A stretch of 64,000 bases of DNA, taken from Planctomycetota bacterium. Its GTDB lineage: Bacteria > Planctomycetota > J058. The notes below the pieces were generated by a model. That model made no database searches. It saw nothing but the letters and a program-made list of their open reading frames with translations, and was not told the origin of the DNA. The position numbers and the translations under genes were made by a program. Positions 6,494-59,131 of the stretch are shown one piece after another. Positions within the stretch are counted from its first letter, which is position 1, and every line of letters begins with the position of its first letter. The DNA lies in NCBI GenBank assembly GCA_023954375.1, contig JAMLIC010000006.1, positions 82,972-146,971 on the forward strand, read 5' to 3'.

Positions 6494-7941
6494 TGCTCGA
6501 CCTGGCGCTGGGGCTGCTCGTCGAGGGCGTCGGCGCCGAGCGCGGCGTCCTCGTGCTGCTGGGCGACGGCGGCGCCGCGGCCGAGACGGTCGCCCGCAAC
6601 ATCCGCGACGCCGAGCTCGAGGGCCACGACTTCGCCTACAGCCGGCGGATCGTCGAGGAGGTGGCCCGGACCGGCGCGCCGGTGCTCGTGCGCGACGCCT
6701 CGCGCGACCCGCGCTTCCGCGACGCCGAGTCGGTGGCCGGCCTGGCGATCCGCTCCGTGCTGGCGGTGCCGGTCGTCGGGCTCGCCGTGCTCTACCTCGA
6801 CGACCGCGCCGCCGCCGGCCGCTTCGACGACGCGTCGCGGGCCCTGGCCGAGCGCCTCGTGGACGAGCTCACGCCCTGCCTGGCCCTGATCCGCGACCGC
6901 GTGCGCCTCGAGCGCACGGTCGCCGGGCTGCGGGCGGCGCCGGCGAGCGATGAGCGCTGGACGATCGTCGGCGACGCCGAGCCCATGCGGCGCCTGCGGC
7001 GCGAGGCGGAGCGCGCTGCGCGCTGGCACCTGCCGCTCCTGATCGAGGGCGAGAGCGGGACGGGCAAGGCGCTCGTCGCGCGCGCCGTCCACGCCGCGAG
7101 CGGGCGGCGCGACGGGCCGTTCGTGGCCGAGTCGTGCGCGGCGATCTCGGACGAGCTCCTGCCGAGCGAGCTCTTCGGCCACGTGCGTGGCGCCTTCAGC
7201 GGGGCCGTCCGCGACCGCCAGGGGCTGTTCGAGACGGCGTCCGGGGGGACGCTCCTCCTCGACCAGGCCGCCGCCATGTCGCCCGCGCTCCAGGCCGCCC
7301 TCCTGCGCGTGCTCGAGGAGGGCGAGGTGCGGCCCCTGGGCGCGGAGAAGAAGCGGCGCGTCGACGTGCGCCTCATCGTGTCGACGAACGAGCCCCTCTC
7401 GGCGCTCGTCGCCGCCGGCCGCTTCCGCGAGGACCTGCTCTACCGGCTGAACGTCCTCCACCTGCGCGTGCCGCCCCTGCGCGAGCGGCGCGAGGACGTG
7501 CCGGCGCTCCTCGACCACTTCCTGCGCCGCTGCGCCGAGGAGGTCGGGCGGCCGCCGCCGGTCGTCGGCGACGCGGCGCGCGAGCTCCTCGTGGCCTTCC
7601 CCTGGCCGGGGAACGTGCGGCAGCTCGAGAACGAGGTGCGCCGGCTGGCGGCGCTGGGCGTGCGGCGCGTCCTGCCGCGCCACCTCACGGACGACGTCCT
7701 CGCCGGGGCGCGCGGCGGCGCGGGCGCCGCCCTGCCGGTCGAGCTGCGGCGGCTGATCGACGCCGGCAAGACGCTCGACGAGGTCCTGGGCGAGCAGGAG
7801 CGGGCGCTGATCGCCCAGGCGCTCGCGGCCTCGGGCGGGACCGTCGCGGGGGCAGCGCGCCTCCTCGGCCTCGAGCGGACGACGCTCCTGCGCCGGGCCC
7901 GGCGCCACGGCCTGCGCGCGGCGGACGGGGGCGGCGAGTGA
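6494..7941 (+). CDS. Sigma-54-dependent transcriptional activator with N-terminal GAF domain
   Basis: GAF-like N-terminus, then AAA+ domain with Walker A GESGTGK, the GAFSGA (GAFTGA-type) sigma-54 contact loop, ELFGH and an Arg finger. C-terminal Fis-type HTH (TVAGAARLLGLERTTLLRRARRHGL). The start is ATG 6494; an alternative is GTG 6385. Confidence 0.85.
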
Positions 7942-10315
7942 CCCCCGAGCAGGCGGACGAGGCGGCGGTCGCCCTGGGCCTGGCGCGCGGGTGGCTCTCG
8001 CCCGAGCAGGTGGAGAGGCGCCGCGCCCAGCGGCGGGCGCGGCCCGACGCGTCGCTCCTCGACCTCCTGGCCCGCTACGACCTCACGCCGGCGCACGCGG
8101 CGGCGCTCCGCGCCGCCCACCAGGCGGCGCTCGCCGGCCGCCCGCCGGAGGCGGCGGCGATGGCGGCGCTGCCGACCGACGCCCTGCACCCGCCGACGGC
8201 CTCGCGCCCCGCGGCGCGCATCGGGCGCTACGAGGTGGTGGCCCCGCTGGGCAAGGGCGGCATGGGCACCGTCCTGCGGGTGCGCGACGCCGCCGGACGC
8301 CTGCTGGCGCTCAAGCTCCTCCAGGCCGCCGCCAACCCCACCGCCCGCGCCCGCTTCGAGCGCGAGGCGCGCCTCCTCGGCCGGATGACCGCGGCCGACG
8401 GCTTCGTGCCGCTCCTCGACCTCGGCCACGGCCCGCAGGGCCCGTTCATCGTCATGCCGCTGCTCGAGGGCGGCAACCTGCGCCAGCGCCTCGAGCGCGG
8501 GCGGCCGACCGTCGACGAGGCGCTCGCGTGGGGGCGCGCGCTGGCGAGCGCCCTGGCGGAGGCGCACCGGCGGGGGATCGTCCATCGCGACGTGAAGCCC
8601 GAGAACGTGCTCTTCGACGACGACGGGCGGCCGCTCCTCGCCGACCTGGGGCTCGCCAAGCACTTCCGCGACGACGTGCCCGGCGCCACGTGGACGGTCT
8701 CGATCTCGCGCCGGGGCGACTGCATGGGCACGATCGGCTACATGGCGCCCGAGCAGATGCTCGACGCCAAGGCCGCGGGCCCGCCGGCCGACGTGTTCGC
8801 CCTGGGCGCCGTGCTGTTCGAGTGCCTCGCAGGCGCCCCCGCCTTCGCTGGCGAGTCGCCCATGGAGGTGGTGGCGGCCGTCACCGAGGGCCGGCGCGCC
8901 GCCCTGCGCGACCTGGCCCCGGAGGCGCCCGCGTGGCTGGTCGACGCTGTCGAGGCCGCCCTGGCCCACGACCCCGCCGCCCGCCCGGCGGACGGGGCCG
9001 CGCTCCTGCGGGCCCTGCGCGGGACCGCGCCGGCGCGCCGGCGACCGCCCTTCGCCCTGGCCGCGCTGGGCGGCGCGGCGCTGCTCGCCCTCACGCTCGC
9101 CGCGGTCGTCCTCCGGCCCGCGCCGCCGCCCCCGTCGCCTGCGTCTGCGCCGGACGCCCCGGCGTCGCGGTCCTCGGCGACGCTCGAGGGCGCGAGCGCG
9201 CTCGACCTCGACGAGGCCCTCGCCCTGGCCCGCGCGGCCGCCCCCGACGCCCCGGGGCTCGCGCGTCGAGCGCGGGCCCGCTGGCGCCTCGACGACCGGC
9301 GCGGGGCGCTCGACGACCTCACGCGCGCCGCGGCGCTCGCGCCCGACGACGGGGCCGTGTGGGTGGACCTGGGCCTCGCGCGGCTGGCGCTGGGCGACCT
9401 CGCGGGCGCGCGCGAGGCGGCGGAGCGCGCCCTGGAGCGCGCGCCCCGCCGCTGGGAGGCGTGGGCCCTGCGCGGGCGGGTCCGGACGGCCCAGGGGCAG
9501 GCGGTCGAGGCGGCGGCCGACGTGCACACCGCCTGCGAGCTGGCGCCCGACGAGGGCGAGGCCTGGGCGCACGCCGCCGCGGTGCTCGCCCCCCGGGAGG
9601 TCGCCCGCGCCGCCGAGGCCGCCGAGCGCGCGCTGGCGCTGGGCTGGCGCACGCCCGAGGCGCTCCTCGCGCGCGCCGGGGGGCGCCGGCACGTCGACCG
9701 CGCCGGCGCGCTGGCGGACGTCGACGAGGCCCTGCGCCTCGCGCCCGACCACGCGGCGGCGCACGCCGCGCGCGCGCTGACGCTCGTCGATGCGCTCCGC
9801 TACCGCGAGGCGCTCGCGGCCCTCGAGCGCGCCTGCGCGCTCGACCCCTCCCTGGCGGACGACGGGGAGCTCGCACGTCAGGGCGGCTTCCTCTACCTGA
9901 CGAGCGGCGACCTCCCGCGGGCGGTCGAGTGGCTCGACCGCGTCCTGGCGCAGACGCCCGACAACGCGCTCCTGCGCGTGCACCGCGGGGCGGCCCGCGT
10001 GCGGCTGGGCGAGCTCGCCCTCGCGCGCGCGGACCTCGATCGGGCGCTCGAGCTCGGGCCCGACCTCCCCTGGGCCTGGAGCGGCCGGGCGGCGCTCCTC
10101 GCGGCCGAGGGCGACCGGCCCGGGGCGCTCGAGGCGCTCGAGCGGGCGCTCGCCCTGGCGCCCGACTTCCCGGAGGCGCTCGAGGCCCGCGCGGCGCTGC
10201 GCCTGACGGCGGGCGACCGGGCGGCCGCCGCGCGCGACCTCGCGCGCGCGCTGGCGCTCGAGCCGGAGCGCGCGGAGCGGCTCGCGCCGGGGCTGCGCGC
10301 CCTGCGCGGCGAGCC

Positions 10316-10319: not shown

Positions 10320-12405
<2,086 letters not shown>

Positions 12406-14213: not shown

Positions 14214-14285
14214 AGGCGGCACCCGGATTTGAACCGGGGGATGACGGATTTGCAATCCGTTGCCTTACCACTTGGCTATGCCGCC
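14214..14285 (-). tRNA. tRNA-Cys (GCA)
   Basis: Minus-strand sequence GGCGGCATAGCCAAGTGGTAAGGCAACGGATTGCAAATCCGTCATCCCCCGGTTCAAATCCGGGTGCCGCCT folds as a cloverleaf. Acceptor stem GGCGGCA pairs with UGCCGCC. Anticodon loop UUGCAAA gives anticodon GCA. The T arm is GGTTCAAATCC. Confidence 0.85.
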
Positions 14286-18954: not shown

Positions 18955-19431
18955 ATGTCCGACCACCCGGGCTCCCTCGAGTGCCTGCGCTGCGGGGCCA
19001 CCAACGACATCGAGGCGGAGAGCCTCCACGACACCCACCGGCCCGCCTGCTGGTCGTGCGGCGGCGCCGAGCTGCGGCGGGTGACCGGCCCGCGCCGCGC
19101 GCCGGCGCCCGCGCCCGCCGTCGAGCACGACGACCTCCGGCTCGACGCCTTCCCGCCCGGCGCCGAGCCCGTCGACGCCGAGGGGTTCCTCTGGCGCGGC
19201 CACTACCGGGCCGCCTCGGGTGACCTCGGCGGCGCGCTCGCCGACGCCGTGCGCGCCGTCGGCCTCGACCCGTTCCTGGCGCCGGCGTGGCTCCTGCGCG
19301 GCGCCGTGCGCCTGCGCCAGGGCGACCGCGGCGGGGCGGCGAGCGACCTCGAGACGTTCCTGCGCCTTGCGCCCGAGCACCCGCAGGCGGCGCGGACGCG
19401 CGAGAAGCTCCTCGACCTGCGAGGGCGGTGA
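18955..19431 (+). CDS. Hypothetical protein with N-terminal zinc ribbon and TPR-like C-terminus
   Basis: CLRCG...CWSCGG zinc ribbon. Two TPR-like helices (WLLRGAVRLRQGDRGGAASDLETFLRLAPEHPQA). Confidence 0.45.
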   Translation: MSDHPGSLECLRCGATNDIEAESLHDTHRPACWSCGGAELRRVTGPRRAPAPAPAVEHDDLRLDAFPPGAEPVDAEGFLWRGHYRAASGDLGGALADAVRAVGLDPFLAPAWLLRGAVRLRQGDRGGAASDLETFLRLAPEHPQAARTREKLLDLRGR

Positions 19432-19438
19432 GCCCTCG

Positions 19439-19620
19439 GAGCTCGAGAAGACATCGCTGCGCGATGTCTCTCGAGCTCTGACCTGCGATGAGTGATGCGC
19501 TCGCGAGGGCGCGATCGGAGCAAGTCCCGGACTGGCACGATCTGGCCCGTTCCGCGCCTCCCACACGCTGCGCTTTGGCGGTCGAGCAGGTGCAGCGGAA
19601 CGAAGAGTTCTCGAGCTCTC
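19439..19620. repeat. Copy B of the dispersed MITE-like repeat, with terminal inverted repeats and an internal hairpin
   Basis: Left end ggagctcgagaag and right end gttctcgagctctc form inverted repeats (GAGCTCGAGAA). A 40-nt near-perfect palindrome gagctcgagaagacatcgc/tgcgcgatgtctctcgagctc is present. The core gcgctcgcgaggg-cgcgatcggagcaagtcccggactggcacgatctggcccgttccgcgc is about 95% identical to copy C. Confidence 0.65.
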
Positions 19621-20401
19621 AGGACGCCTTCGGGTCGGCCTTCGGGTCCGCCCGGGGCGGACGGACGGCGTGGCGCGCCAGCGCGGCCTCGACCCGCGCG
19701 GCGAGCTCGACGACCTGGTCGCGGCGCCGGCGGGCGAGCGCGCCGACCAGGGCGCGCAGGCCGATCAGGAAGAGGGCCGTGAAGCCGATGCCGAGCCCCA
19801 CGAGCCAGGGCAGGTCCTTGACGACCCCCCACACGAGCGGGTGGACCAGCAGGTTGACGCCGAGGCCGCCGCCCAGGCCGCCCCAGAGGCCGCCGACGAG
19901 GTTGCCAAGGCGCTCCTCGACCTCGAGCGTCGTCGCGCCGTCGCGCGACGCCACGACGAGGGTGAGATCACGGCCGCCGCGGGACCCCGGCGCGTGACGC
20001 CAGGTGAGGGTGCGGCCCACCCGGGAGGTGTGGCCCGGGTCGCCGAGGACGCGGCGCGCCGCCTCGACCGCCTCCTCGTCGACCTCGGGGCCGACCTCCC
20101 CGAGCACCGTCCGGACGACGCGCAGGCGGAGCGGCGCGCCCAGGAGGCGCTCGACGACGCCCGGCGCGGGCTCGTGCGGCTCCGCCGCCCGGACGGGCGC
20201 CGACCCGGCGCGCGCCAGCGCCTCGGCCGCGCCGCACCCGCCGCAGCGCCCCGACTCCGTCCAGCAGGCCGCGTGGTGCCGGGCGAGGCAGCGGGCGCAC
20301 GCCAGCCAGTCCTGCGCCTCCACCGCCACGTCGTCGTGGCAGTAGGGGCACCGCAGGGCGCTCTGCCCGACGCGCACGCGCTCCTTGGCGTCACCGTCCA
20401 T
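19619..20401 (-). CDS. Hypothetical zinc-ribbon membrane protein
   Basis: CPYCH...CARC...CGGCG zinc-binding N-terminus. C-terminal TM helices (VNLLVHPLVWGVV..LVGLGIGFTALFLIGLRALVGAL). Confidence 0.45.
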   Translation of the reverse strand: MDGDAKERVRVGQSALRCPYCHDDVAVEAQDWLACARCLARHHAACWTESGRCGGCGAAEALARAGSAPVRAAEPHEPAPGVVERLLGAPLRLRVVRTVLGEVGPEVDEEAVEAARRVLGDPGHTSRVGRTLTWRHAPGSRGGRDLTLVVASRDGATTLEVEERLGNLVGGLWGGLGGGLGVNLLVHPLVWGVVKDLPWLVGLGIGFTALFLIGLRALVGALARRRRDQVVELAARVEAALARHAVRPPRADPKADPKAS

Positions 20402-30622: not shown

Positions 30623-32589
30623 GCCAGGACGCGGCCGAGCGCGCGCGGCGCTACCTCGTCGAGGGCGACCCGGCCATGGCGCTGGGCGCCGCCGAGGCGG
30701 CCCTGCGCGACGCCGGCCGCGAGGACGCGCTCTCGCTCCGCCTCGCCGCCGCGCGGGCGGCCGCGGCGCTCGGCGACCTCGCCGCGCAGGCCCGGCACCT
30801 CGAGGCGGCCGAGGCGCTCGTCCGCGCCGGGCGCCTCGACGCGCTCGGCCCGGTGCTGGCGCAGCTGGGCGAGCTCCACCTGCGGCGAAACGACCCGGCC
30901 CGCGCGGCGGTGACCCTCGAGGAGGCGCTCGGGCAGCTCCCGGCCGACGACCCGCAGGCCGGGCGCGTGCGCGGCCTCCTCGACGAGGCGCGGGGCCGCG
31001 AGCGCGAGGCGCCGCAGGAGGACGACCCTCCCGCGCCGCCCCCCGCGCCGCCGACGACCGAGGCCGCGGCGCGGCTGCTCGAGATGACCGAGCGCCTCGT
31101 CGAGCAGCAGGCCGACCTCGAGCTCCCGGCGCTCCTCGACCTCGTGCTGGCCGAGCTCGTCAAGGCCGCCGTCGCAGACCGCGGGTTCGTCCTCCTGCGC
31201 GAGCCCGGCGAGGGGCTCGTGATCCGCGCCGCGCGCGACGCCGCCGGCCGGCCGGTCCCGGACCCCGCGCGCGAGGTCTCGCGCAAGATCGCCGAGCGCG
31301 CCGCCGCCGAGCAGGTGGCGCTCCGCGCCGTGCGCCCGGCCGAGGACCCGCGGTTCGCCGGCAGCCGCAGCGCCAAGGCGCTCGACCTGCGCGCGCTCGT
31401 CGCCGCCCCCCTGCGCTACCGGCGGATCGACCTGGGCTGCGTCGTGCTCGACCGGCGCGGCTCGCGCGACGTGGCCTTCGACGACGCGGCCGAGGCCCTC
31501 GTCGACCGCTTCGCCCGCCTGGCCTCGGGCCTGATCGTCCGCGCCCGCCTGCGCGAGGCCGAGCGCCGGCGCGCCGAGGCGCTCCAGGCGCTCTTCGCCC
31601 GCGGCGCCGAGCAGGTTCGCGAGCGCTTCCGCTCGGGCGGGCTCAGGGGCGAGAGCCAGGCCATGTTCGGGCTCCTGCGCCTCCTCGAGCGCGTGGCGCC
31701 GACCGAGGCGCGCGTGCTGATCCGCGGCGAGAGCGGCACCGGCAAGGAGCTCGTCGCCCGCACGATCCACGAGAACTCGCCGCGCCGCGAGGCGCCCTTC
31801 CACGCCGTCAACTGCGCCGCCATGCCGGAGGCCCTCCTCGAGGGCGAGCTCTTCGGCCACGTGCGCGGGGCGTTCACCGGGGCCGAGGGCGACCGCGCGG
31901 GCCTGTTCGAGAGAGCCCACGAGGGGACGCTCTTCCTGGACGAGATCGGCGACGCCTCGCCGCGGCTCCAGGCCGAGCTCCTGCGCGTCCTCCAGGAGGG
32001 CGAGGTGCGGCGGCTGGGCGACGGGTCCGTGCGCAAGGTGGACGTGCGCGTGCTCGCGGCCACGCACCAGGACCTCGAGGCCATGGTCGCCGAGGGCCGC
32101 TTCCGCGAGGACCTCCTCTACCGGCTCAACGTGGTGGTCGTGCGGGTGCCGCCGCTCCGCGAGCGGCCCGAGGACGTGCCGCTCCTCGCCCGGCAGTTCG
32201 AGCGCGAGGCGCGCGAGCTCATGGGCGACCCGTCGCGGGCCACGCCGCTCGACGACGCGAAGCTCTCGGCGCTCGCCGCGCGCCCCTGGCCCGGCAACGT
32301 GCGCGAGCTGAAGAACGTCGTCACGCGCCTGGTCACGCTGGGCGAGCTGGCCGCCTCGTCAGCCGCGGGGCAGGACGCCGCGCCGGCGGCGCCTCTCCGC
32401 GCGCCGCTCGGCGTGCCCGAGGCCGCGCGCCCCGGCGACGACGAGGTGCTCACGCTCGCGGAGGCCGAGCGCCGGGCGATCGTGGCCGCCCTGCGGCGCA
32501 CCGGCGGCGCGCGCCAGGAGGCGGCCGACCTGCTCGAGTGCGCGCGGCGGACGCTCTACACGAAGATCCGGCAGTACGGGCTGGAGTGA
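30619..32589 (+). CDS. Sigma-54-dependent transcriptional activator (helical/TPR-like N-terminus, GAF-like domain, AAA+, HTH)
   Basis: GESGTGKE, GAFTGA, ELFGH, the Arg finger, and a C-terminal Fis-type HTH (ARQEAADLLECARRTLYTKIRQYGL). GTG start at 30619 overlaps the upstream stop. Confidence 0.85.
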   Translation: MSQDAAERARRYLVEGDPAMALGAAEAALRDAGREDALSLRLAAARAAAALGDLAAQARHLEAAEALVRAGRLDALGPVLAQLGELHLRRNDPARAAVTLEEALGQLPADDPQAGRVRGLLDEARGREREAPQEDDPPAPPPAPPTTEAAARLLEMTERLVEQQADLELPALLDLVLAELVKAAVADRGFVLLREPGEGLVIRAARDAAGRPVPDPAREVSRKIAERAAAEQVALRAVRPAEDPRFAGSRSAKALDLRALVAAPLRYRRIDLGCVVLDRRGSRDVAFDDAAEALVDRFARLASGLIVRARLREAERRRAEALQALFARGAEQVRERFRSGGLRGESQAMFGLLRLLERVAPTEARVLIRGESGTGKELVARTIHENSPRREAPFHAVNCAAMPEALLEGELFGHVRGAFTGAEGDRAGLFERAHEGTLFLDEIGDASPRLQAELLRVLQEGEVRRLGDGSVRKVDVRVLAATHQDLEAMVAEGRFREDLLYRLNVVVVRVPPLRERPEDVPLLARQFEREARELMGDPSRATPLDDAKLSALAARPWPGNVRELKNVVTRLVTLGELAASSAAGQDAAPAAPLRAPLGVPEAARPGDDEVLTLAEAERRAIVAALRRTGGARQEAADLLECARRTLYTKIRQYGLE

Positions 32590-33375: not shown

Positions 33376-35214
33376 TCACGCCTGGGACGGGTCTGAACCC
33401 GTCGCCGGAGCCTCGGGGGCCGGGGCATCGGGGTCGGGCGCCAGCCGCACGCGCCGCCCGGCGCAGACGAGGAGGCCGAGCCCGGCCGCCCCGCAGGCGA
33501 GGGCGAAGGCGTCGCCGAAGCGGACGTAGAAGGAGCGCAGGTCGGTCGTCTCGAGGTCGGCCACGAACGCGCCCTCGACGCCGACGTAGCGGGTCTTCCC
33601 CTTGATCGTCTGCGTGACCTCGTGGTGGACCGCCCCCGTGGGGTCCACGACCAGCGAGACGCCGCGGTTCACGCAGCGCACGACCGGGCGCCGCCCCTCG
33701 ATCGCCCGGAAGACGGCGTGGTCGCGGGCCAGCCCGAGCTCGGCCGTCCGCATCCAGCCCTCGTCCTCCTCGTGGCGCCCGCCGCGCACGAACCAGCCGT
33801 CGTTGGCCGGGCACACGAGCGCGTCGGCGCCCTGGCGCACCCCCTCGCGCAGGAGCTCGGGGAAGGAGATCTCGAAGCAGATGCTCGGCGCCAGCCGGTG
33901 GGCGCCGGCCTGCACCAGCACCTGCCCCTCGCCGGGGGCGAACACCGTGAAGCCCTCGGGGACGAAGCTCTTCACCAGGTCGTGGAGCCAGCCGAGGAGC
34001 AGGGTGTCCTTGCCGGGAATGTACTCGCTCGCCGGGACGAGGTTGATCTTGTCGTAGCGGGCCACGACGCCGGCCTGCGGCGCGACGGCGTAGATCGAGT
34101 TGTGCTCGGGCCCGCCGTCGAGGCCGCGGTCGACGGCGCCGACGAGGATCACGGCGCCGGTCCGGTCGGCGAGGGCCTGGAGCTGCCGCGTCCAGCTCGC
34201 GACCAGCTCCGCGTAGGCCGGCGGCAGCTCCGACAGCCAGCGGTACCAGCCCTTGCGCCCGGCGTCGGTGCGAAGGTCGGGGAGCGGCCACGGCCACATG
34301 GTCTCGCTCCACACGATCGCGTCGACCTTCTCGTCCGCGCGGTGGGCCAGCGTGCGCTCGCTCAGGCGCAGGTTCGTGCGCACGAGGTCGAGGGCGCTGG
34401 CGGGGGCGGCGTCGTCCTTGAGGTTCTGCGGGAAGTCGGGCTGGACGACGAGGACGCGCGGGCCGGGGCGCAGGGCGTCGCGCACCTGCGCCCGCCGCAC
34501 GAGGCCGTAGGTGCAGGCGCTCGCCAGGAGGACGAGCGGGACGGCCGCGTAGACCGCGAGCCGGCGCCGGTCGCGCGCGTCGAGGTCGCGCTCGGCGAGC
34601 ACGCGGGCGCGCACGAGGAGGGCCGCGTCGACGAGCGCGCCGTTGACCAGGAGCACGAGGAAGCTCAGCCCGTAGACCGACGTGACGTCGGCGATCTGGA
34701 TGAGCGTCGTCCGGTCGTGCTGCGAGGCCCCGAGGAGCAGCCACGGGAAGCGGATGATCGGCGTGTTGCCGCGCAGCCACTCGAGCCCGGTGCCCAGCAG
34801 CGGCAGGACGGCCAGGAGCGGCGCCCCCGTGCGGGCGCGGATCCACAGGGCGCCCACGGCGAGGGCCACGCCGTAGAAGCCCTCGAGGAACACCGTGATC
34901 AGCCACCCCTCGGGCGAGACCATGCCGATCCAGGACAGCCCGACGAGGTGATAGAGGAAGGTGACCGCGTAGCTGACGACGAACGCCACCCGCCAGCCCT
35001 GGGTCGCCGCGACGTAGAGCCACGGGACGAGCGCCACCCACGCCAGGAGCCCCAGGTCGAGGGGGTGGAAGCTGGCGAACAGGAGGAGCGCCGAGGCCAG
35101 CGTCGCCCCGTAGGCCCACTGCAGCCGGCCCTCGCGCCCCTCGTCCGCCTGCTCGGTCGCCGTCGTGGCGGTCACGGGGCCGGCCGTCTGCAGGTCGGGA
35201 GAGCTCTGGCTCAC
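33376..35214 (-). CDS. lnt: Apolipoprotein N-acyltransferase
   Basis: Six or seven N-terminal TM helices, a CN-hydrolase domain with the E...K...C triad (ICFEISFPEL), and a C-terminal TM helix. 612 aa. GTG start at 35214. Confidence 0.85.
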   Translation of the reverse strand: MSQSSPDLQTAGPVTATTATEQADEGREGRLQWAYGATLASALLLFASFHPLDLGLLAWVALVPWLYVAATQGWRVAFVVSYAVTFLYHLVGLSWIGMVSPEGWLITVFLEGFYGVALAVGALWIRARTGAPLLAVLPLLGTGLEWLRGNTPIIRFPWLLLGASQHDRTTLIQIADVTSVYGLSFLVLLVNGALVDAALLVRARVLAERDLDARDRRRLAVYAAVPLVLLASACTYGLVRRAQVRDALRPGPRVLVVQPDFPQNLKDDAAPASALDLVRTNLRLSERTLAHRADEKVDAIVWSETMWPWPLPDLRTDAGRKGWYRWLSELPPAYAELVASWTRQLQALADRTGAVILVGAVDRGLDGGPEHNSIYAVAPQAGVVARYDKINLVPASEYIPGKDTLLLGWLHDLVKSFVPEGFTVFAPGEGQVLVQAGAHRLAPSICFEISFPELLREGVRQGADALVCPANDGWFVRGGRHEEDEGWMRTAELGLARDHAVFRAIEGRRPVVRCVNRGVSLVVDPTGAVHHEVTQTIKGKTRYVGVEGAFVADLETTDLRSFYVRFGDAFALACGAAGLGLLVCAGRRVRLAPDPDAPAPEAPATGSDPSQA

Positions 35215-35329: not shown

Positions 35330-35490
35330 GCGCAGCTCCTGCGCTCGCGAGGGGGGCGCGATCGGAGCACGTCCCGGACTGGCACGATCTGGCCCGTTCC
35401 GCGCATCCCCATCGCTCGCTCTGGCGGGTCGAGCCCGAGCGGCGGAGAGAAGAGTTCCCAAGCTCTGTGAGTCCTGCATCGGCGAGCGCG
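35330..35490. repeat. Copy C of the dispersed MITE-like repeat
   Basis: Contains gcgctcgcgaggggggcgcgatcggagcacgtcccggactggcacgatctggcccgttccgcgcatccccatcgctcgctctggcg. Its right end gaagagttcccaagctct is a degenerate TIR. Lies in the divergent Lnt / cytochrome c intergenic region. Confidence 0.65.
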
Positions 35491-51230: not shown

Positions 51231-51944
51231 TCAGACCACGTGCGACCACGCGAACGCCGGGCAGCCGATCGCGACGACCTCGACCTCGCCCGTGTAGACC
51301 CGCGCCCCGGGCGCGGCGAAGCCGACCTTCTCGTGCACGAAGGTCACCGTGCGAACGGCCCGCGCGGCGGCGCCCAGCGGGACGCCCCGGTCGGAGTCGA
51401 GGCCCGAGGGGATGTCGACCGCGACCCTCGGCCGCGGGTCCTGATCGAGGGCGCGGACGAGGCCGAGGCCCGGCTCGCGCAGGGCGCCCTCGAGGCCCGT
51501 CCCGTAGAGCGCGTCGACGACCAGCGCCGCCCCGGGCCGCGCCGCGAGCCAGGCGGCCAGGGCGGCCCCGTCGGGCGCCTCGTCGACCTGCTCCCCCGCG
51601 CGCTCGAGCACGGCGAGGTTCACGCCGGCGTCGGTCCCGCGGTCGACCAGCGCGAGGCGGCCGGCGAGGGCCACGCGCGGCCGCCAGCCGAGGAGCAGGA
51701 GGTGGCGCGCGAGGACGAAGCCGTCGCCGCCGTTGTTGCCGCGTCCGCAGACGACCAGGACCTCGGCCCCCGGCGGCGCGCCCCGCGCGCGCAGGTCGCG
51801 GTCGACGGCCGCGGTCAGGCCGCGGCCGGCGTTCTCCATGAGGACGAGGCCCGGGAGGCCCAGGTCCTCGATCGCCCGGCGATCGACCTCGCGCACCTCG
51901 GCGCGGGAGAGAGGGCGCGGTGGCCGGGCGAAGGTCGACTCCAT
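51231..51944 (-). CDS. nnrE: NAD(P)H-hydrate epimerase (YjeF N-terminal domain)
   Basis: AEVREVDRRAIEDLGLPGLVLMENAGRG...VLVVCGRGNNGGDGFVLARHL is the YjeF_N signature. ATG at 51944. The track ORF is extended upstream. Confidence 0.75.
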   Translation of the reverse strand: MESTFARPPRPLSRAEVREVDRRAIEDLGLPGLVLMENAGRGLTAAVDRDLRARGAPPGAEVLVVCGRGNNGGDGFVLARHLLLLGWRPRVALAGRLALVDRGTDAGVNLAVLERAGEQVDEAPDGAALAAWLAARPGAALVVDALYGTGLEGALREPGLGLVRALDQDPRPRVAVDIPSGLDSDRGVPLGAAARAVRTVTFVHEKVGFAAPGARVYTGEVEVVAIGCPAFAWSHVV

Positions 51945-52182
51945 GGCGCCCGAAGATACGGCCCTCGTGGCCGGCGACCAGGACACCTGGCGGGGACGCG
52001 CGTGGCCCCTCGGTTCCGGCGCCTCGGCCGGGCCGAGGCCCCCTGGCCACGCGGCCGCCGCCGCCGCGGGACGCCCGGGGCGCCCGAGGAGCGCGCGGCC
52101 GGCCGCCGCCTGGGCGCCGCCGTCGACTCCCTTGCAGGGCACGTCTATCATGTGCCGCCAACGGCAGGAGCGCGCGACACGC

Positions 52183-54942
52183 ATGAAGATCTCCGTCATC
52201 GGCACCGGCTACGTCGGCCTCGTCACCGGGACCTGCTTCGCCGACAACGGCAACGACGTCTGGTGCGTCGACATCGACGAGAAGAAGATCGAGCGGCTGA
52301 ACCGCGGCGAGGTCCCGATCTACGAGCCGGGCCTCGACCAGATGATCGAGCGCAACGTCCAGGGCGAGCGCCTCCGGTTCACGACCGACCTGGCCGACGC
52401 CGTCCGCCGCACGCGGATCGTGTTCCTCTGCGTCGGGACCCCGTCCGCGCCCGACGGCTCGCCCGACATGCGCTACGTCTACAAGGCCGCCGAGGACGTG
52501 GCCCGCGCCATGGAGGAGCACACGATCCTCGTCCTCAAGTCGACCGTCCCCGTGGGCACGGCCGCCGAGGTGCGCAAGCGCGTGGCGGCCGCCACGAAGC
52601 TCCCCTTCGACGTCGTCAGCAACCCCGAGTTCCTCAAGGAGGGCCACGCGGTCGACGACTTCCTCAAGCCCGACCGCGTCGTGATCGGCACCGACGACCC
52701 ACGCGTGGCCCTGATCATGAAGGAGCTCTACGACCCCTTCGTGCGCACGGGCAACCCGATCCTCGTCATGGACAACGTCTCGGCCGAGCTGACGAAGTAC
52801 GGCGCCAACGCGCTGCTCGCCGCGCGCATCTCGTTCATGAACGAGCTGGCCAACCTCGCCGACCGCGTCGGCGCCGACATCAACCAGGTGCGGCAGGGGA
52901 TGGGCAGCGATGCGCGGATCGGACACTCGTTCCTGTTCCCGGGCATCGGCTACGGGGGCAGCTGCCTCCTCGGCCGCGAGACCGTCCTGGTGCGCCAGGG
53001 CGGGCGGGTCCGGCTGACCCGCTTCGACCGCCTGTTCGCGGCGCTCGCGCCCGGGGCGGGCGATGAGGCCGGCGCGGTCGCGCCGGAGGGGCTCGAGGTC
53101 CTCTCCTGGGAGCCGTCGACGGGCGCGCCGTCGTGGCGGCCGGTCTCCGCCGTCACCCGCCGCCCCTTCGAGGGCGAGGCGCTCGAGGTGCGCACGAAGA
53201 TGGGCCGCCGGGTCCGCTGCACGCCCGACCACCCGTTCGTCGCCTCCGACGCGGCGCACGGTCCGCGGCGCGTCGTGCTCGCCGCCGAGCTGACCGCCGA
53301 CCACTGGCTGCCCCTGGCGCAGGGGCGCGAGCAGGGCGAGGCGCCGCGCCGCGTCGACCTGCTCGGGAGCCTCGAGCGGCTCGGCGTGCGCCAGGACGAG
53401 GTGATCGTCCGCTTGGCCCCCGCGGTCGCCGCGGCGCTGGACGTCCGCGTCGTCCGGGCCGCGATCGAGCGCCTCGGCGAGCACGCCTCGCCCGCATCGC
53501 GCGCCCACGACATCGTCCGCAACGGCGCGCTCCGCCTCCACGAGGCGCGCGCGCTGGGGGTGGCGCTCGAGGGCGCCGCGCTCGGGACGGCGAAGAACGG
53601 CACCTACGTGCCGACCGGCCTCGACCTCGACGAGGCGTTCTGGCGCGTCGTCGGGCTCTACATCGCCGAGGGTCACTGCTCGGTCGACGGGCGTCGGCAC
53701 CGGCTCTCCTGGTCGTTCCACCCGACCGACGAGGACGCCCTCGTCGAGGAGGTGGCGGCCTTCTGGGAGCGGCTGGGCGTCAAGGCGACGGTCCTCCGGC
53801 GGTCCACCACGACCCAGGTGACCGTCTCGTCGCGCCTCCTGGCGACCTGGTGGCTGGGTGAGCTCGGCCTCGGCGCCGACTGCTACGCGCAGCGCGTCCC
53901 CGACCTCGTCTGGGAGCAGCCCGAGGCCCACCGCCGGGCGCTGCTCGCCGGGGTCTGGCAGGGCGACGGGTCGTGGTCGCGCGTCAACGGCGGCCCGAGC
54001 GTCGTGCTCGAGCACGGCACGGCCAGCCCGGAGCTGGCGGACGGCCTCCTCCGGCTCCTCGGGGACCTCGGCATCGTGGCGCGGACCAAGGTGGGCCGCA
54101 CCGCGAAGTCGACCGTCGACACGCACTGGCTCGTGGTCTCCGGCGCCGACCAGGTCGAGCGGCTGGTCGACCTGGTGAAGCCGGCCCAGCGCGCCGACCT
54201 CGTCGGGAGCGTCGCGCGCCAGCTGAAGCGCATCGCCCCAACGGGGTACCGGCGCTTCGAGGGGGACGCGTCGGCCTGGGTCCGCGTGACCGAGGTCCGT
54301 CGCCGCCCCTACCAGGGCTGGGTCTACTCGCTCGAGGTCCCCGGGCCCGAGACGTTCGTGACGACGGGCGGCCTCGTCGTCCACAACTGCTTCCCCAAGG
54401 ACGTGGACGCCCTCGGTTACACCGGCAAGAACGCCGGCATGGACCTCAAGCTGCTCGCCGCCACCAACGAGGTGAACCGCACGCAGAAGCGGGTCCTGTT
54501 CGACAAGATCAGCGCGCGCTTCGGCGGCGACCTGAAGGGCAAGCGGATCGCGATCTGGGGCCTGGCGTTCAAGCCGCGCACCGACGACATGCGCGAGGCG
54601 CCCTCGCTGACCGTGATCGGCCTCCTGCTCGAGGCCGGCGCCACCGTCCACGCCTACGACCCGGCGGCGACCGAGACGACCCGCGCCGTGCTGGGCGACA
54701 GGATCCAGTACGCGCAGAAGCAGTACCGGGCGCTCGAGGGCGCCGACGCGCTGGCGATCTGCACCGAGTGGAACGAGTTCCGCCGCCCCGACTGGGAGCG
54801 GATCAGGGCGTCGCTCCGGCAGCCGATCATCTTCGACGGCCGCAACATCTTCGAGCCGGCGCGCGTCGAGGAGGCGGGCTTCGAGTACTACGGCATCGGC
54901 CGCGGGCGCAAGCTCGAGCTGTCGCCGCGGGCGAGGGGCTGA
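52183..54942 (+). CDS. ugd: UDP-glucose 6-dehydrogenase interrupted by an in-frame intein (precursor 919 aa)
   Basis: N-extein MKISVIGTGYVGLVTG...GIGYGGS, then the intein, then C-extein CFPKDVDALGYTG...KPRTDDMREAPS... Splicing would restore the catalytic motif GGSCFPKD. All Ugd signature segments are present in the exteins. Confidence 0.9.
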   Translation: MKISVIGTGYVGLVTGTCFADNGNDVWCVDIDEKKIERLNRGEVPIYEPGLDQMIERNVQGERLRFTTDLADAVRRTRIVFLCVGTPSAPDGSPDMRYVYKAAEDVARAMEEHTILVLKSTVPVGTAAEVRKRVAAATKLPFDVVSNPEFLKEGHAVDDFLKPDRVVIGTDDPRVALIMKELYDPFVRTGNPILVMDNVSAELTKYGANALLAARISFMNELANLADRVGADINQVRQGMGSDARIGHSFLFPGIGYGGSCLLGRETVLVRQGGRVRLTRFDRLFAALAPGAGDEAGAVAPEGLEVLSWEPSTGAPSWRPVSAVTRRPFEGEALEVRTKMGRRVRCTPDHPFVASDAAHGPRRVVLAAELTADHWLPLAQGREQGEAPRRVDLLGSLERLGVRQDEVIVRLAPAVAAALDVRVVRAAIERLGEHASPASRAHDIVRNGALRLHEARALGVALEGAALGTAKNGTYVPTGLDLDEAFWRVVGLYIAEGHCSVDGRRHRLSWSFHPTDEDALVEEVAAFWERLGVKATVLRRSTTTQVTVSSRLLATWWLGELGLGADCYAQRVPDLVWEQPEAHRRALLAGVWQGDGSWSRVNGGPSVVLEHGTASPELADGLLRLLGDLGIVARTKVGRTAKSTVDTHWLVVSGADQVERLVDLVKPAQRADLVGSVARQLKRIAPTGYRRFEGDASAWVRVTEVRRRPYQGWVYSLEVPGPETFVTTGGLVVHNCFPKDVDALGYTGKNAGMDLKLLAATNEVNRTQKRVLFDKISARFGGDLKGKRIAIWGLAFKPRTDDMREAPSLTVIGLLLEAGATVHAYDPAATETTRAVLGDRIQYAQKQYRALEGADALAICTEWNEFRRPDWERIRASLRQPIIFDGRNIFEPARVEEAGFEYYGIGRGRKLELSPRARG
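52963..54387 (+). mobile_element. Intein (475 aa) with LAGLIDADG homing-endonuclease domain inside ugd
   Basis: Begins with Cys1 (CLLGRETVLV). Ends with the canonical His-Asn (GGLVVHN) followed by +1 Cys (CFPKD). Block B-like TPDHPF. Two LAGLIDADG motifs: VGLYIAEGHCS and LLAGVWQGDGSWS. Confidence 0.85.
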
Positions 54943-58876: not shown

Positions 58877-59131
58877 CCTGGGTCGGGCTGGGCACGGGTC
58901 CTCCGGGGGACCCTCCTCGCAAGCCGGGGGCCGGGCGAGCGGCGCGCAGGTGCAAGCGGCGCGTCGCACGGGCGTGACCGGGTCACGCGCGCGTGACTCT
59001 CGAGGGGCCTCACCACGGCGGACACGGAGGAGCGCCCAGGGGTGTTCGTCCGTGCCCTCCGTGCCCCCCGTGGTGATCCTGGTCGGGCTTCAACGTCGAT
59101 TCTGGCGGGAGCCAGGGTCGGCGTTGCAGCC

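Follow-up and report, generated by a model that had tools for sequence, protein, structure and literature searches.

A lineage-restricted family of small, modular intergenic repeats, probably non-autonomous, in a Planctomycetota genome

A family of small repeats (hereafter the element) was found between the genes of a 64 kb stretch of DNA (hereafter the window, the whole stretch that was analyzed) from a Planctomycetota MAG, the GC content of which is about 76% in this stretch. The family is genuine and dispersed, yet narrow in its distribution. On balance, we regard it as probable that the element represents a lineage-restricted family of small, modular, non-coding and non-autonomous repeats. 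A selfish mobile element of the ordinary kind is the most likely description. The family is new and restricted to one lineage; its class, the small structured interspersed repeats of bacteria, is familiar.

The window contains exactly three copies of the element, A, B and C, all of which are intergenic and lie on the + strand. Three intergenic copies had been claimed at these places in the original prediction, and all of them were recovered by BLASTN, by a covariance model built from nine copies of the element, and by the gene calls, in which the genes were defined by GC3 (third-position GC) and Pfam. The copies, their parts and the genes around them are as follows.

426-610, + strand: copy A, with hairpin module, core and tail; a diverged subfamily
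430-480, + strand: hairpin module of copy A, optional; stem 435-448 / 462-475
487-584, + strand: core of copy A; 69 bits with the covariance model
19432-19623, + strand: copy B, the long form, with hairpin module, core and tail
19436-19481, + strand: hairpin module of copy B, a near-perfect palindrome of 19-20 bp
19491-19590, + strand: core of copy B, with stem P1 enclosing two small hairpins and the GGCACGAnCTGGCCCG block; 88 bits
19533-19547, + strand: sigma-54-like string TGGCACGATCTGGCC of copy B, in the loop of the inner hairpin P3
19595-19623, + strand: right terminal arm of copy B, inverted with respect to 19434-19462
35335-35466, + strand: copy C in its total extent, core followed by tail, without hairpin module
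35335-35436, + strand: core of copy C; 109 bits; P1 arms 35347-35360 and 35400-35415
35380-35394, + strand: GGCAC block of copy C
35437-35466, + strand: tail of copy C (…GAAGAGTTCCCAAGCTCT)
122-421, - strand: 99-aa gene, start at 421
611-1234, - strand: signal peptidase I gene (lepB), stop codon 611-613
18955-19431, + strand: TPR gene, stop codon 19429-19431
19619-20401, - strand: RING-finger-like gene, stop codon 19619-19621
33376-35214, - strand: Lnt gene
Annotated start about 35672, + strand: di-haem cytochrome c gene

Copy A occupies the whole 189-nt gap (422-610) from the stop of the signal peptidase I gene to the start of the 99-aa gene. The 187-nt gap filled by copy B (19432-19618) is bounded by two convergent stop codons, and copy C sits between the divergent Lnt and di-haem cytochrome c genes. 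In the BLASTN comparison, copies B and C were 85.2% identical over 128 columns (E = 9e-35), with an exact run of 34 nt. The shared core of about 130 nt that had been described for these two copies was therefore confirmed, and the identity of about 90% given for it was slightly too high. Copies A and C were 79.8% identical over 89 nt (E = 2e-10), and copies A and B were 76.6% identical over 77 nt (E = 2e-10), the latter match spanning the hairpin and the 5' part of the core. BLASTN detected no fourth copy in the window (nothing else better than E = 1e-3), and the next-best match of the covariance model in the window scored 17 bits, as against 69-109 bits for the three copies.

Two features of the sequence adjoining copy B were also observed. 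The last codons of the TPR gene (19414-19427, GACCTGCGAGGGCG) contain two 9-mers, GACCTGCGA and GCGAGGGCG, which recur inside copy B at 19480-19488 and 19503-19511. These recurrences may be due to chance, or may hint at a preferred target or at junction microhomology. Right beside the other end of the copy, a 12-nt tandem duplication, GCCTTCGGGTCG / GCCTTCGGGTCC, is located at 19626-19649; it encodes the ADPKADPKA C-terminus of the RING-finger-like protein.

The distribution of the element was analyzed in ACE_PLA31 (GCA_019636275.1), a sister MAG whose orthologous coding DNA is 88-89% identical to that of the window, and in larger sequence collections. ACE_PLA31 carries at least six further copies, spread over four loci (L001, L004, L007 and L011). 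The pirin gene of L001 starts 58 nt downstream of the element. At L004 the element is flanked by a LysR gene and a divergent isochorismatase-like gene, and at L007 it lies antisense between two co-directional genes, adjoining a sigma-54 activator. The L011 locus carries a head-to-tail array with a period of 135 nt (2.7 units, 96% match), which is made of three full cores with partial 5' units between them. The flanks at L001, L004 and L007 are unrelated to those in the window. As copies are thus present in unrelated flanks of a second genome, the family is a genuinely dispersed one, as had been proposed, and not the result of local duplication. Copies were found in every kind of intergenic context and in either orientation to the neighboring genes.

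When 185,579 species genomes, one per species, were scanned for exact matches to one 20-mer of the core, only ACE_PLA31 (three contigs) and four chance matches were obtained. Two scans of the JGI metagenomes, with a stem-anchored gapped pattern and with the 20-mer, yielded no real match to the element, and viral contigs yielded 0 matches. In a six-frame peptide search, a translation of the element was found in one of 5.8 billion predicted proteins. This protein (P0051) is a PLD-like protein of 445 aa from an NCBI MAG, the C-terminus of which (…ARASDGDGRKGTVRAGPGLAPIARPSRAHH…) translates an antisense copy of the element. The C-terminus is probably an annotation read-through, or that of a gene truncated by insertion.

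The three sites occupied in the window were then compared with the orthologous sites in relatives. At site A, the element is present in the window and in the Logan contigs L023-25, which belong to a strain with a 90% identical lepB. In the A-type copy of L023, which reaches 30.6 bits, P1 is degraded; this orthologue of copy A is decaying. L029, L030 and the P0033 contig lack the element at site A and have only 8-11 nt separating lepB from the next gene; these relatives are more distant, with lepB identities of 57-68%. In another strain a different sequence follows the lepB stop, and the contigs end there. At site B, the similarity to ACE_PLA31 ends at the TPR stop codon, exactly where the element begins, and the gene that follows is RecQ in ACE_PLA31 as opposed to the RING-finger gene in the window. 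The intergenic content of site B differs in all three strains examined.

At site C, the order in the window is Lnt, the element pointing away from Lnt, cytochrome c, an 84-aa ORF and MoaB. In ACE_PLA31, Lnt, the 84-aa ORF and MoaB are kept, the cytochrome c gene is absent, and the L011 array is found instead, pointing towards Lnt and hence in the orientation opposite to that of copy C. The element is absent from site C of the MAG JAHCJL (L017), where an unrelated hairpin repeat is present instead. The Logan short-read contigs L012-14, from another strain, begin inside the element at this site, as is to be expected for a multi-copy repeat. A mobile cassette composed of the element and the cytochrome c gene was considered and rejected, the only close homologue (78%) being located in another context without the element.

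In summary of these three sites, the element is present, absent, inverted or different in copy number among close relatives, and the synteny breaks coincide with its copies. Between genomes with about 89% identical coding DNA, it has been gained, lost, inverted and tandemly amplified. The 'young' copies at non-orthologous sites of the two genomes have identities of 80-98% in the aligned core (up to 93% by BLAST); the old copy A reaches only 63-77% against the other copies. The site comparisons therefore suggest that the element is an insertion that arose within the lineage. Its presence, number, orientation and modules turn over among close relatives.

Other repeats were encountered at the same loci and elsewhere in the window. 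The hairpin repeat that occupies the site of copy C in JAHCJL belongs to a second family (CACCACGGNGGACACGGAGG … CCTCCGTG…CGTGGTG), unrelated to the element, which occurs once in the window (about 59006-59080), at 1681-1800 of L017 and at the start of L015. A third small repeat (CTCCGCGCCCTCGCCTCRCTCGYGGTTCCA…) is located in L010 (10494-10532, 10671-10770 and 545-594) and at the ends of L019 and L020; in relatives it lies 3' of the TPR gene, which is the site of copy B in the window, and contigs also break there. The window further contains paralogous coding repeats of 70-76% identity, namely 8327-8853 versus 10432-10940, within a region of 81-83% GC at 8-12 kb, and 7104-7527 versus 31782-32205, which are AAA+ domains of sigma-54 activators. 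In addition, an intein that contains a LAGLIDADG homing-endonuclease domain splits the gene for a UDP-glucose/GDP-mannose dehydrogenase (51508-54942, + strand); the Pfam matches Intein_splicing and LAGLIDADG_3 are flanked by the central dehydrogenase domain on one side and the C-terminal one on the other.

The element is composed of an optional hairpin of 45-50 nt, a 5' linker of about 20 nt (CCTGCGATGAG), a core of about 100 nt and a tail of about 40 nt. The conserved sequence sets in sharply at TGCGCTCGCGAGG and continues for about 95 nt to CTCTGGCGG. The tail is looser and ends in TTCTCGAGCTCT in copies B and C, at L001 and L004, and in the third unit of L011. In the best-supported fold of the core, a 14-bp stem, P1, closes two short hairpins, P2 and P3. 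The arms of P1 are GCGAGGGGCGGGCG and CGCCCG-T-CCCC-A-TCGC, P2 has the form GGN-loop5-NCC, and GGCACGAnCTGGCCCG lies within the loop of P3 and beside it. The fold pairs 94.8% of the cells, a value derived from only nine related sequences. Double-sided changes were observed in three pairs, from GC to CG in P1 (copies B and C) and among AU, CG and UG in P2. The covariation score, which refers to these nine related sequences and three pairs, was higher than those of 500 out of 500 shuffles and of all slid controls. A DNA hairpin would be equally expected to give such a signal. The distal end of P1 appears by eye to be re-paired in copy A as well (CGGCGC/GCGCCG).

An alternative fold around the central palindrome (GATCG…AGTC CCG GACT…CGATC) was 83% paired with covariation not above the shuffles, and was rejected. 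Single-sequence folding was uninformative at so high a GC content. Copy C folded no better than its shuffles on both strands (z = +0.6), the minimum-energy folds of copies A and B use pairings other than P1, and the hairpin module accounts for most of the effect in the low z-scores of full-length A and B. The longest invariant run in the alignment comprises 13 of 91 columns (p about 0.12 against chance placement of the variable columns).

In all the sequence examined, the hairpin module is present only in copies A and B. The near-perfect palindrome noted earlier in copy B was located, with stems at 19436-19448/19469-19481 and 19449-19457/19461-19469. The description of copy A as having kept the hairpin beside a diverged core also agrees with its module and with its low identity to the other copies. 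The module is absent from copy C, L004, L007, the L011 array and the L023 orthologue of copy A. Since this orthologue lacks 48 nt exactly at the 5' edge of the element, the module is optional. The 40-nt hairpin had been regarded as a feature of the family; it lies outside the conserved unit, and this part of the original prediction was abandoned.

The terminal inverted repeats (TIRs) reported for copy B do exist. Its ends, GAGCTCGAGAA (19440-19450) and TTCTCGAGCTC (19608-19618), are inverted with respect to each other, and the match extends to 29-nt arms that are 76% complementary (19434-19462 and 19595-19623). Copy A has an inverted end pair weaker than that of copy B. As a property of the family, however, TIRs could not be upheld: they are missing from copy C and from the copies in ACE_PLA31, and when copy C, L004, L007 and the L011 units were aligned, they had no left arm in common. 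No target-site duplication was found at the ends of copy B, nor did a clean one emerge when the filled and empty forms of site A were compared; for such a reading, the boundaries of the copies other than B are uncertain.

From the pattern of presence and absence we infer that the element is mobile. Its copies would be spread by a trans-acting enzyme encoded elsewhere in the genome, and this enzyme would recognize the conserved stem-loop rather than long TIRs. Transposition of the IS200/IS605 or REP-RAYT type, which is guided by a hairpin and leaves no target-site duplication, may be the process at work. Such a process is favored because what the family conserves is a stem-loop showing compensatory changes. 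It is preferred to the DDE cut-and-paste transposition of a MITE because no duplication was found, the TIRs are not general, and the arrays are head-to-tail with partial units. Recombination between copies would then reshuffle the modules and the flanking genes, and effects on the host, for example through mRNA hairpins between genes, would be a by-product. The non-autonomous transposon that had been put forward at the outset agrees with the dispersal and the insertion polymorphism; its general TIRs, its target duplication and, among 30 window ORFs, its transposase were not found. These 30 ORFs, scanned with Pfam, comprise most of the genes of the window. The 64 kb window and some 200 kb from related loci contained no autonomous parent with ends like those of the element, nor was a clean footprint of excision seen.

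Recombination or gene conversion clearly contributes, since the modules are shuffled, the element is inverted at site C and synteny breaks at its copies; homologous recombination and gene conversion alone could explain part of the pattern. It might even be supposed that the element is a recombination-prone junk repeat without dedicated transposition machinery, whose spread and rearrangement are due to nothing but gene conversion and recombination, homologous or illegitimate. Besides the inversion relative to the common flank and the synteny breaks, the mosaic structure of copies A and B, in which the hairpin is present or absent at exactly one junction, and the partial units of the array are consistent with this idea. 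Recombination, however, would hardly place a copy in the gap of 8-11 nt between lepB and the next gene, or copies in unrelated intergenic regions of two genomes. We therefore consider it unlikely that recombination is the only process involved. A different possibility is that the element represents small structured RNAs encoded in multiple copies, which would act in trans as sRNAs or in cis as an RNA element, with the conserved 16-nt block of the P3 loop serving as a seed or a protein-binding site. The compensatory changes in P1 and the conserved loop block are what such an RNA would show. A G·U pair is found at one P3 position in eight of the nine copies, and a U·G pair in P2 of one copy, and these pairs would read C·A on the opposite strand. 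The element also lies upstream of a same-strand gene at four of eight loci, and tandem sRNA arrays are known from other bacteria. On the other hand, no conserved promoter is present: conservation begins abruptly at TGCGCTCGCGAGG, and the sequence upstream of it differs in copy C and L007. A scan of the element gave 0 matches to the sigma-70 promoter consensus and 0 to the intrinsic terminator consensus, and Rfam contains no family for it at gathering or permissive thresholds (nothing in the region of copy C at E up to 10; only chance microRNA-type matches far below threshold in that of copy B). The orientation relative to the neighbors is mixed, and three loci aim at the 3' end of a convergent gene. 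Close relatives lack the element at orthologous sites, the L011 array contains partial 5' units, P1 is degraded in the L023 orthologue of copy A, and the invariant blocks are not longer than expected by chance. An RNA family would accordingly seem improbable, and for the small-RNA genes suggested in the original prediction we found nothing in favor beyond the conserved stem. A more elaborate version, for which we see a rather slim chance, is that the core of about 100 nt, specific to this uncultured and very GC-rich lineage, functions as a structured RNA or is recognized as single-stranded DNA by a mobilization enzyme not yet described, that the invariant GGCACGAnCTGGCCCG loop is its active or binding site, and that its spread rewires neighboring genes (cytochrome c, pirin, LysR, Lnt). 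The sole Rfam match in the window is a tRNA gene at 14214-14285 (- strand, 70.9 bits).

The preferred reading, a small non-autonomous repeat, was also weighed against a role in regulation or coding. One possibility is that the element is a regulatory DNA cassette, carrying a promoter for sigma-54 or another alternative sigma factor, or an operator. The predicted string TGGCACG-N4-TGGCC is indeed found in the core at 19533-19547 (copy B) and 35380-35394 (copy C) and is missing from copy A. Sigma-54 activators are encoded in the window and at L007, and several copies have a gene downstream. The GG-to-GC distance is nevertheless 10 nt and not 11, so that the observation of a spacing one nucleotide off was correct, and sigma-54 promoters are intolerant of a 1-nt change in spacing. 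Copies B and C have three mismatches to the consensus and were not recovered in a search for TGGCAC-N5-TTGC with up to two mismatches, a pattern that matched the window 21 times against 40 expected by chance. The three copies of L011 read CGGCAC, AGGCAC and CGGCAC, showing that the T is not conserved, and TGGCAC is absent from copy A. An ECF-like reading, whichever strand is taken, relies on positions that differ among the copies, and the element faces the ends of convergent genes at three loci. A regulatory cassette is thus very unlikely, the sigma-54 idea has to be dropped, and the element says nothing about sigma-54 regulation. By inspection, an ECF-type promoter, an integron attC site, a retron, a DGR and a hammerhead were also rejected, as their motifs or partner genes were absent or variable. 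Finally, the element might encode a small peptide, such as the 36-aa ORF ATGAGTGATGCG…GACGAGTGA in each unit of the ACE_PLA31 array. An ATG in a common frame starts units 2 and 3 of L011 and copy B, and the ORF of unit 2 terminates at the TGA of the next unit. That ATG is missing from copy C, L001, L007 and copy A, however, and the ATG of L004 is in another frame. The indels of the element are of 1, 2 and 3 nt, and the frame is broken by a 1-nt deletion in L001 and by indels of 1 and 2 nt in copy A. The six open frames in the element are due to its GC content of 75%, and its sole translation in the protein search is the C-terminal read-through described above. We regard a peptide as extremely unlikely.

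Several known repeat systems resemble the element in part. Bacterial MITEs such as Correia/NEMIS of Neisseria and MITEAba12 are likewise non-coding, intergenic and multi-copy sequences of 100-200 nt, the presence of which varies among strains and which may sit between the genes of an operon. The element is small and non-coding (100-190 nt, no conserved frame), and it occurs in dispersed copies with insertion polymorphism (three in the window and at least six in ACE_PLA31; three sites). Copy B alone resembles a MITE in its 29-nt imperfect terminal inverted repeats. Unlike MITEs, the family has no general TIRs shared by its copies and no visible flanking target-site duplication, no related IS or transposase is known for it, and it forms head-to-tail arrays with partial units. 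The element is therefore not a textbook MITE.

The REP, BIME and REPIN sequences mobilized by RAYT (HUH tyrosine transposases) and the IS200/IS605-derived PATEs share with the element a conserved stem-loop in place of TIRs, the lack of a target duplication, the formation of clusters or arrays and of mosaics with other modules, and intergenic positions adjoining stop codons. REPs are palindromes of 20-40 nt with a GTAG or CGTC tag (PMC3733652). The core of the element, by contrast, is about 100 nt long and has a complex fold without a conserved tag; some copies have CGTC in their 3' arm, but copies B and C do not. Its arrays are head-to-tail and not inverted doublets as in REPINs. Because of its size, and because neither GTAG nor CGTC is conserved in it as a tag, classification of the element as a REP was rejected. 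Neither the window nor the related loci that were read showed a gene for RAYT, TnpA or TnpB.

BOX of Streptococcus pneumoniae and ERIC of enterobacteria are also modular structured intergenic repeats of roughly 100-200 nt, with optional or repeated modules, no known transposase and a doubtful role in mRNA. Their sequences and host phyla are unrelated to those of the element, which repeats a partial 5' unit and not a boxB-type module. The MIRU/VNTR loci of mycobacteria resemble it in their tandem intergenic units, the copy number of which varies among close strains, as at the Lnt site (1 unit in the window versus 2.7 units in ACE_PLA31). In contrast to MIRU/VNTR, most copies of the element are single and dispersed, their orientation to an operon is not fixed, and there is no conserved overlapping ORF.

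To our knowledge, small interspersed repeats have hardly been described in Planctomycetota. For now, the element counts as an ordinary selfish repeat; the discovery of a cognate enzyme or of a transcript would make it a new example of hairpin-recognized mobile DNA or of a repeat-borne RNA. Because the element marks assembly breaks, strain-level indels and synteny breakpoints in this lineage, it is useful in assembling MAGs, typing strains and detecting mis-annotated ORFs.
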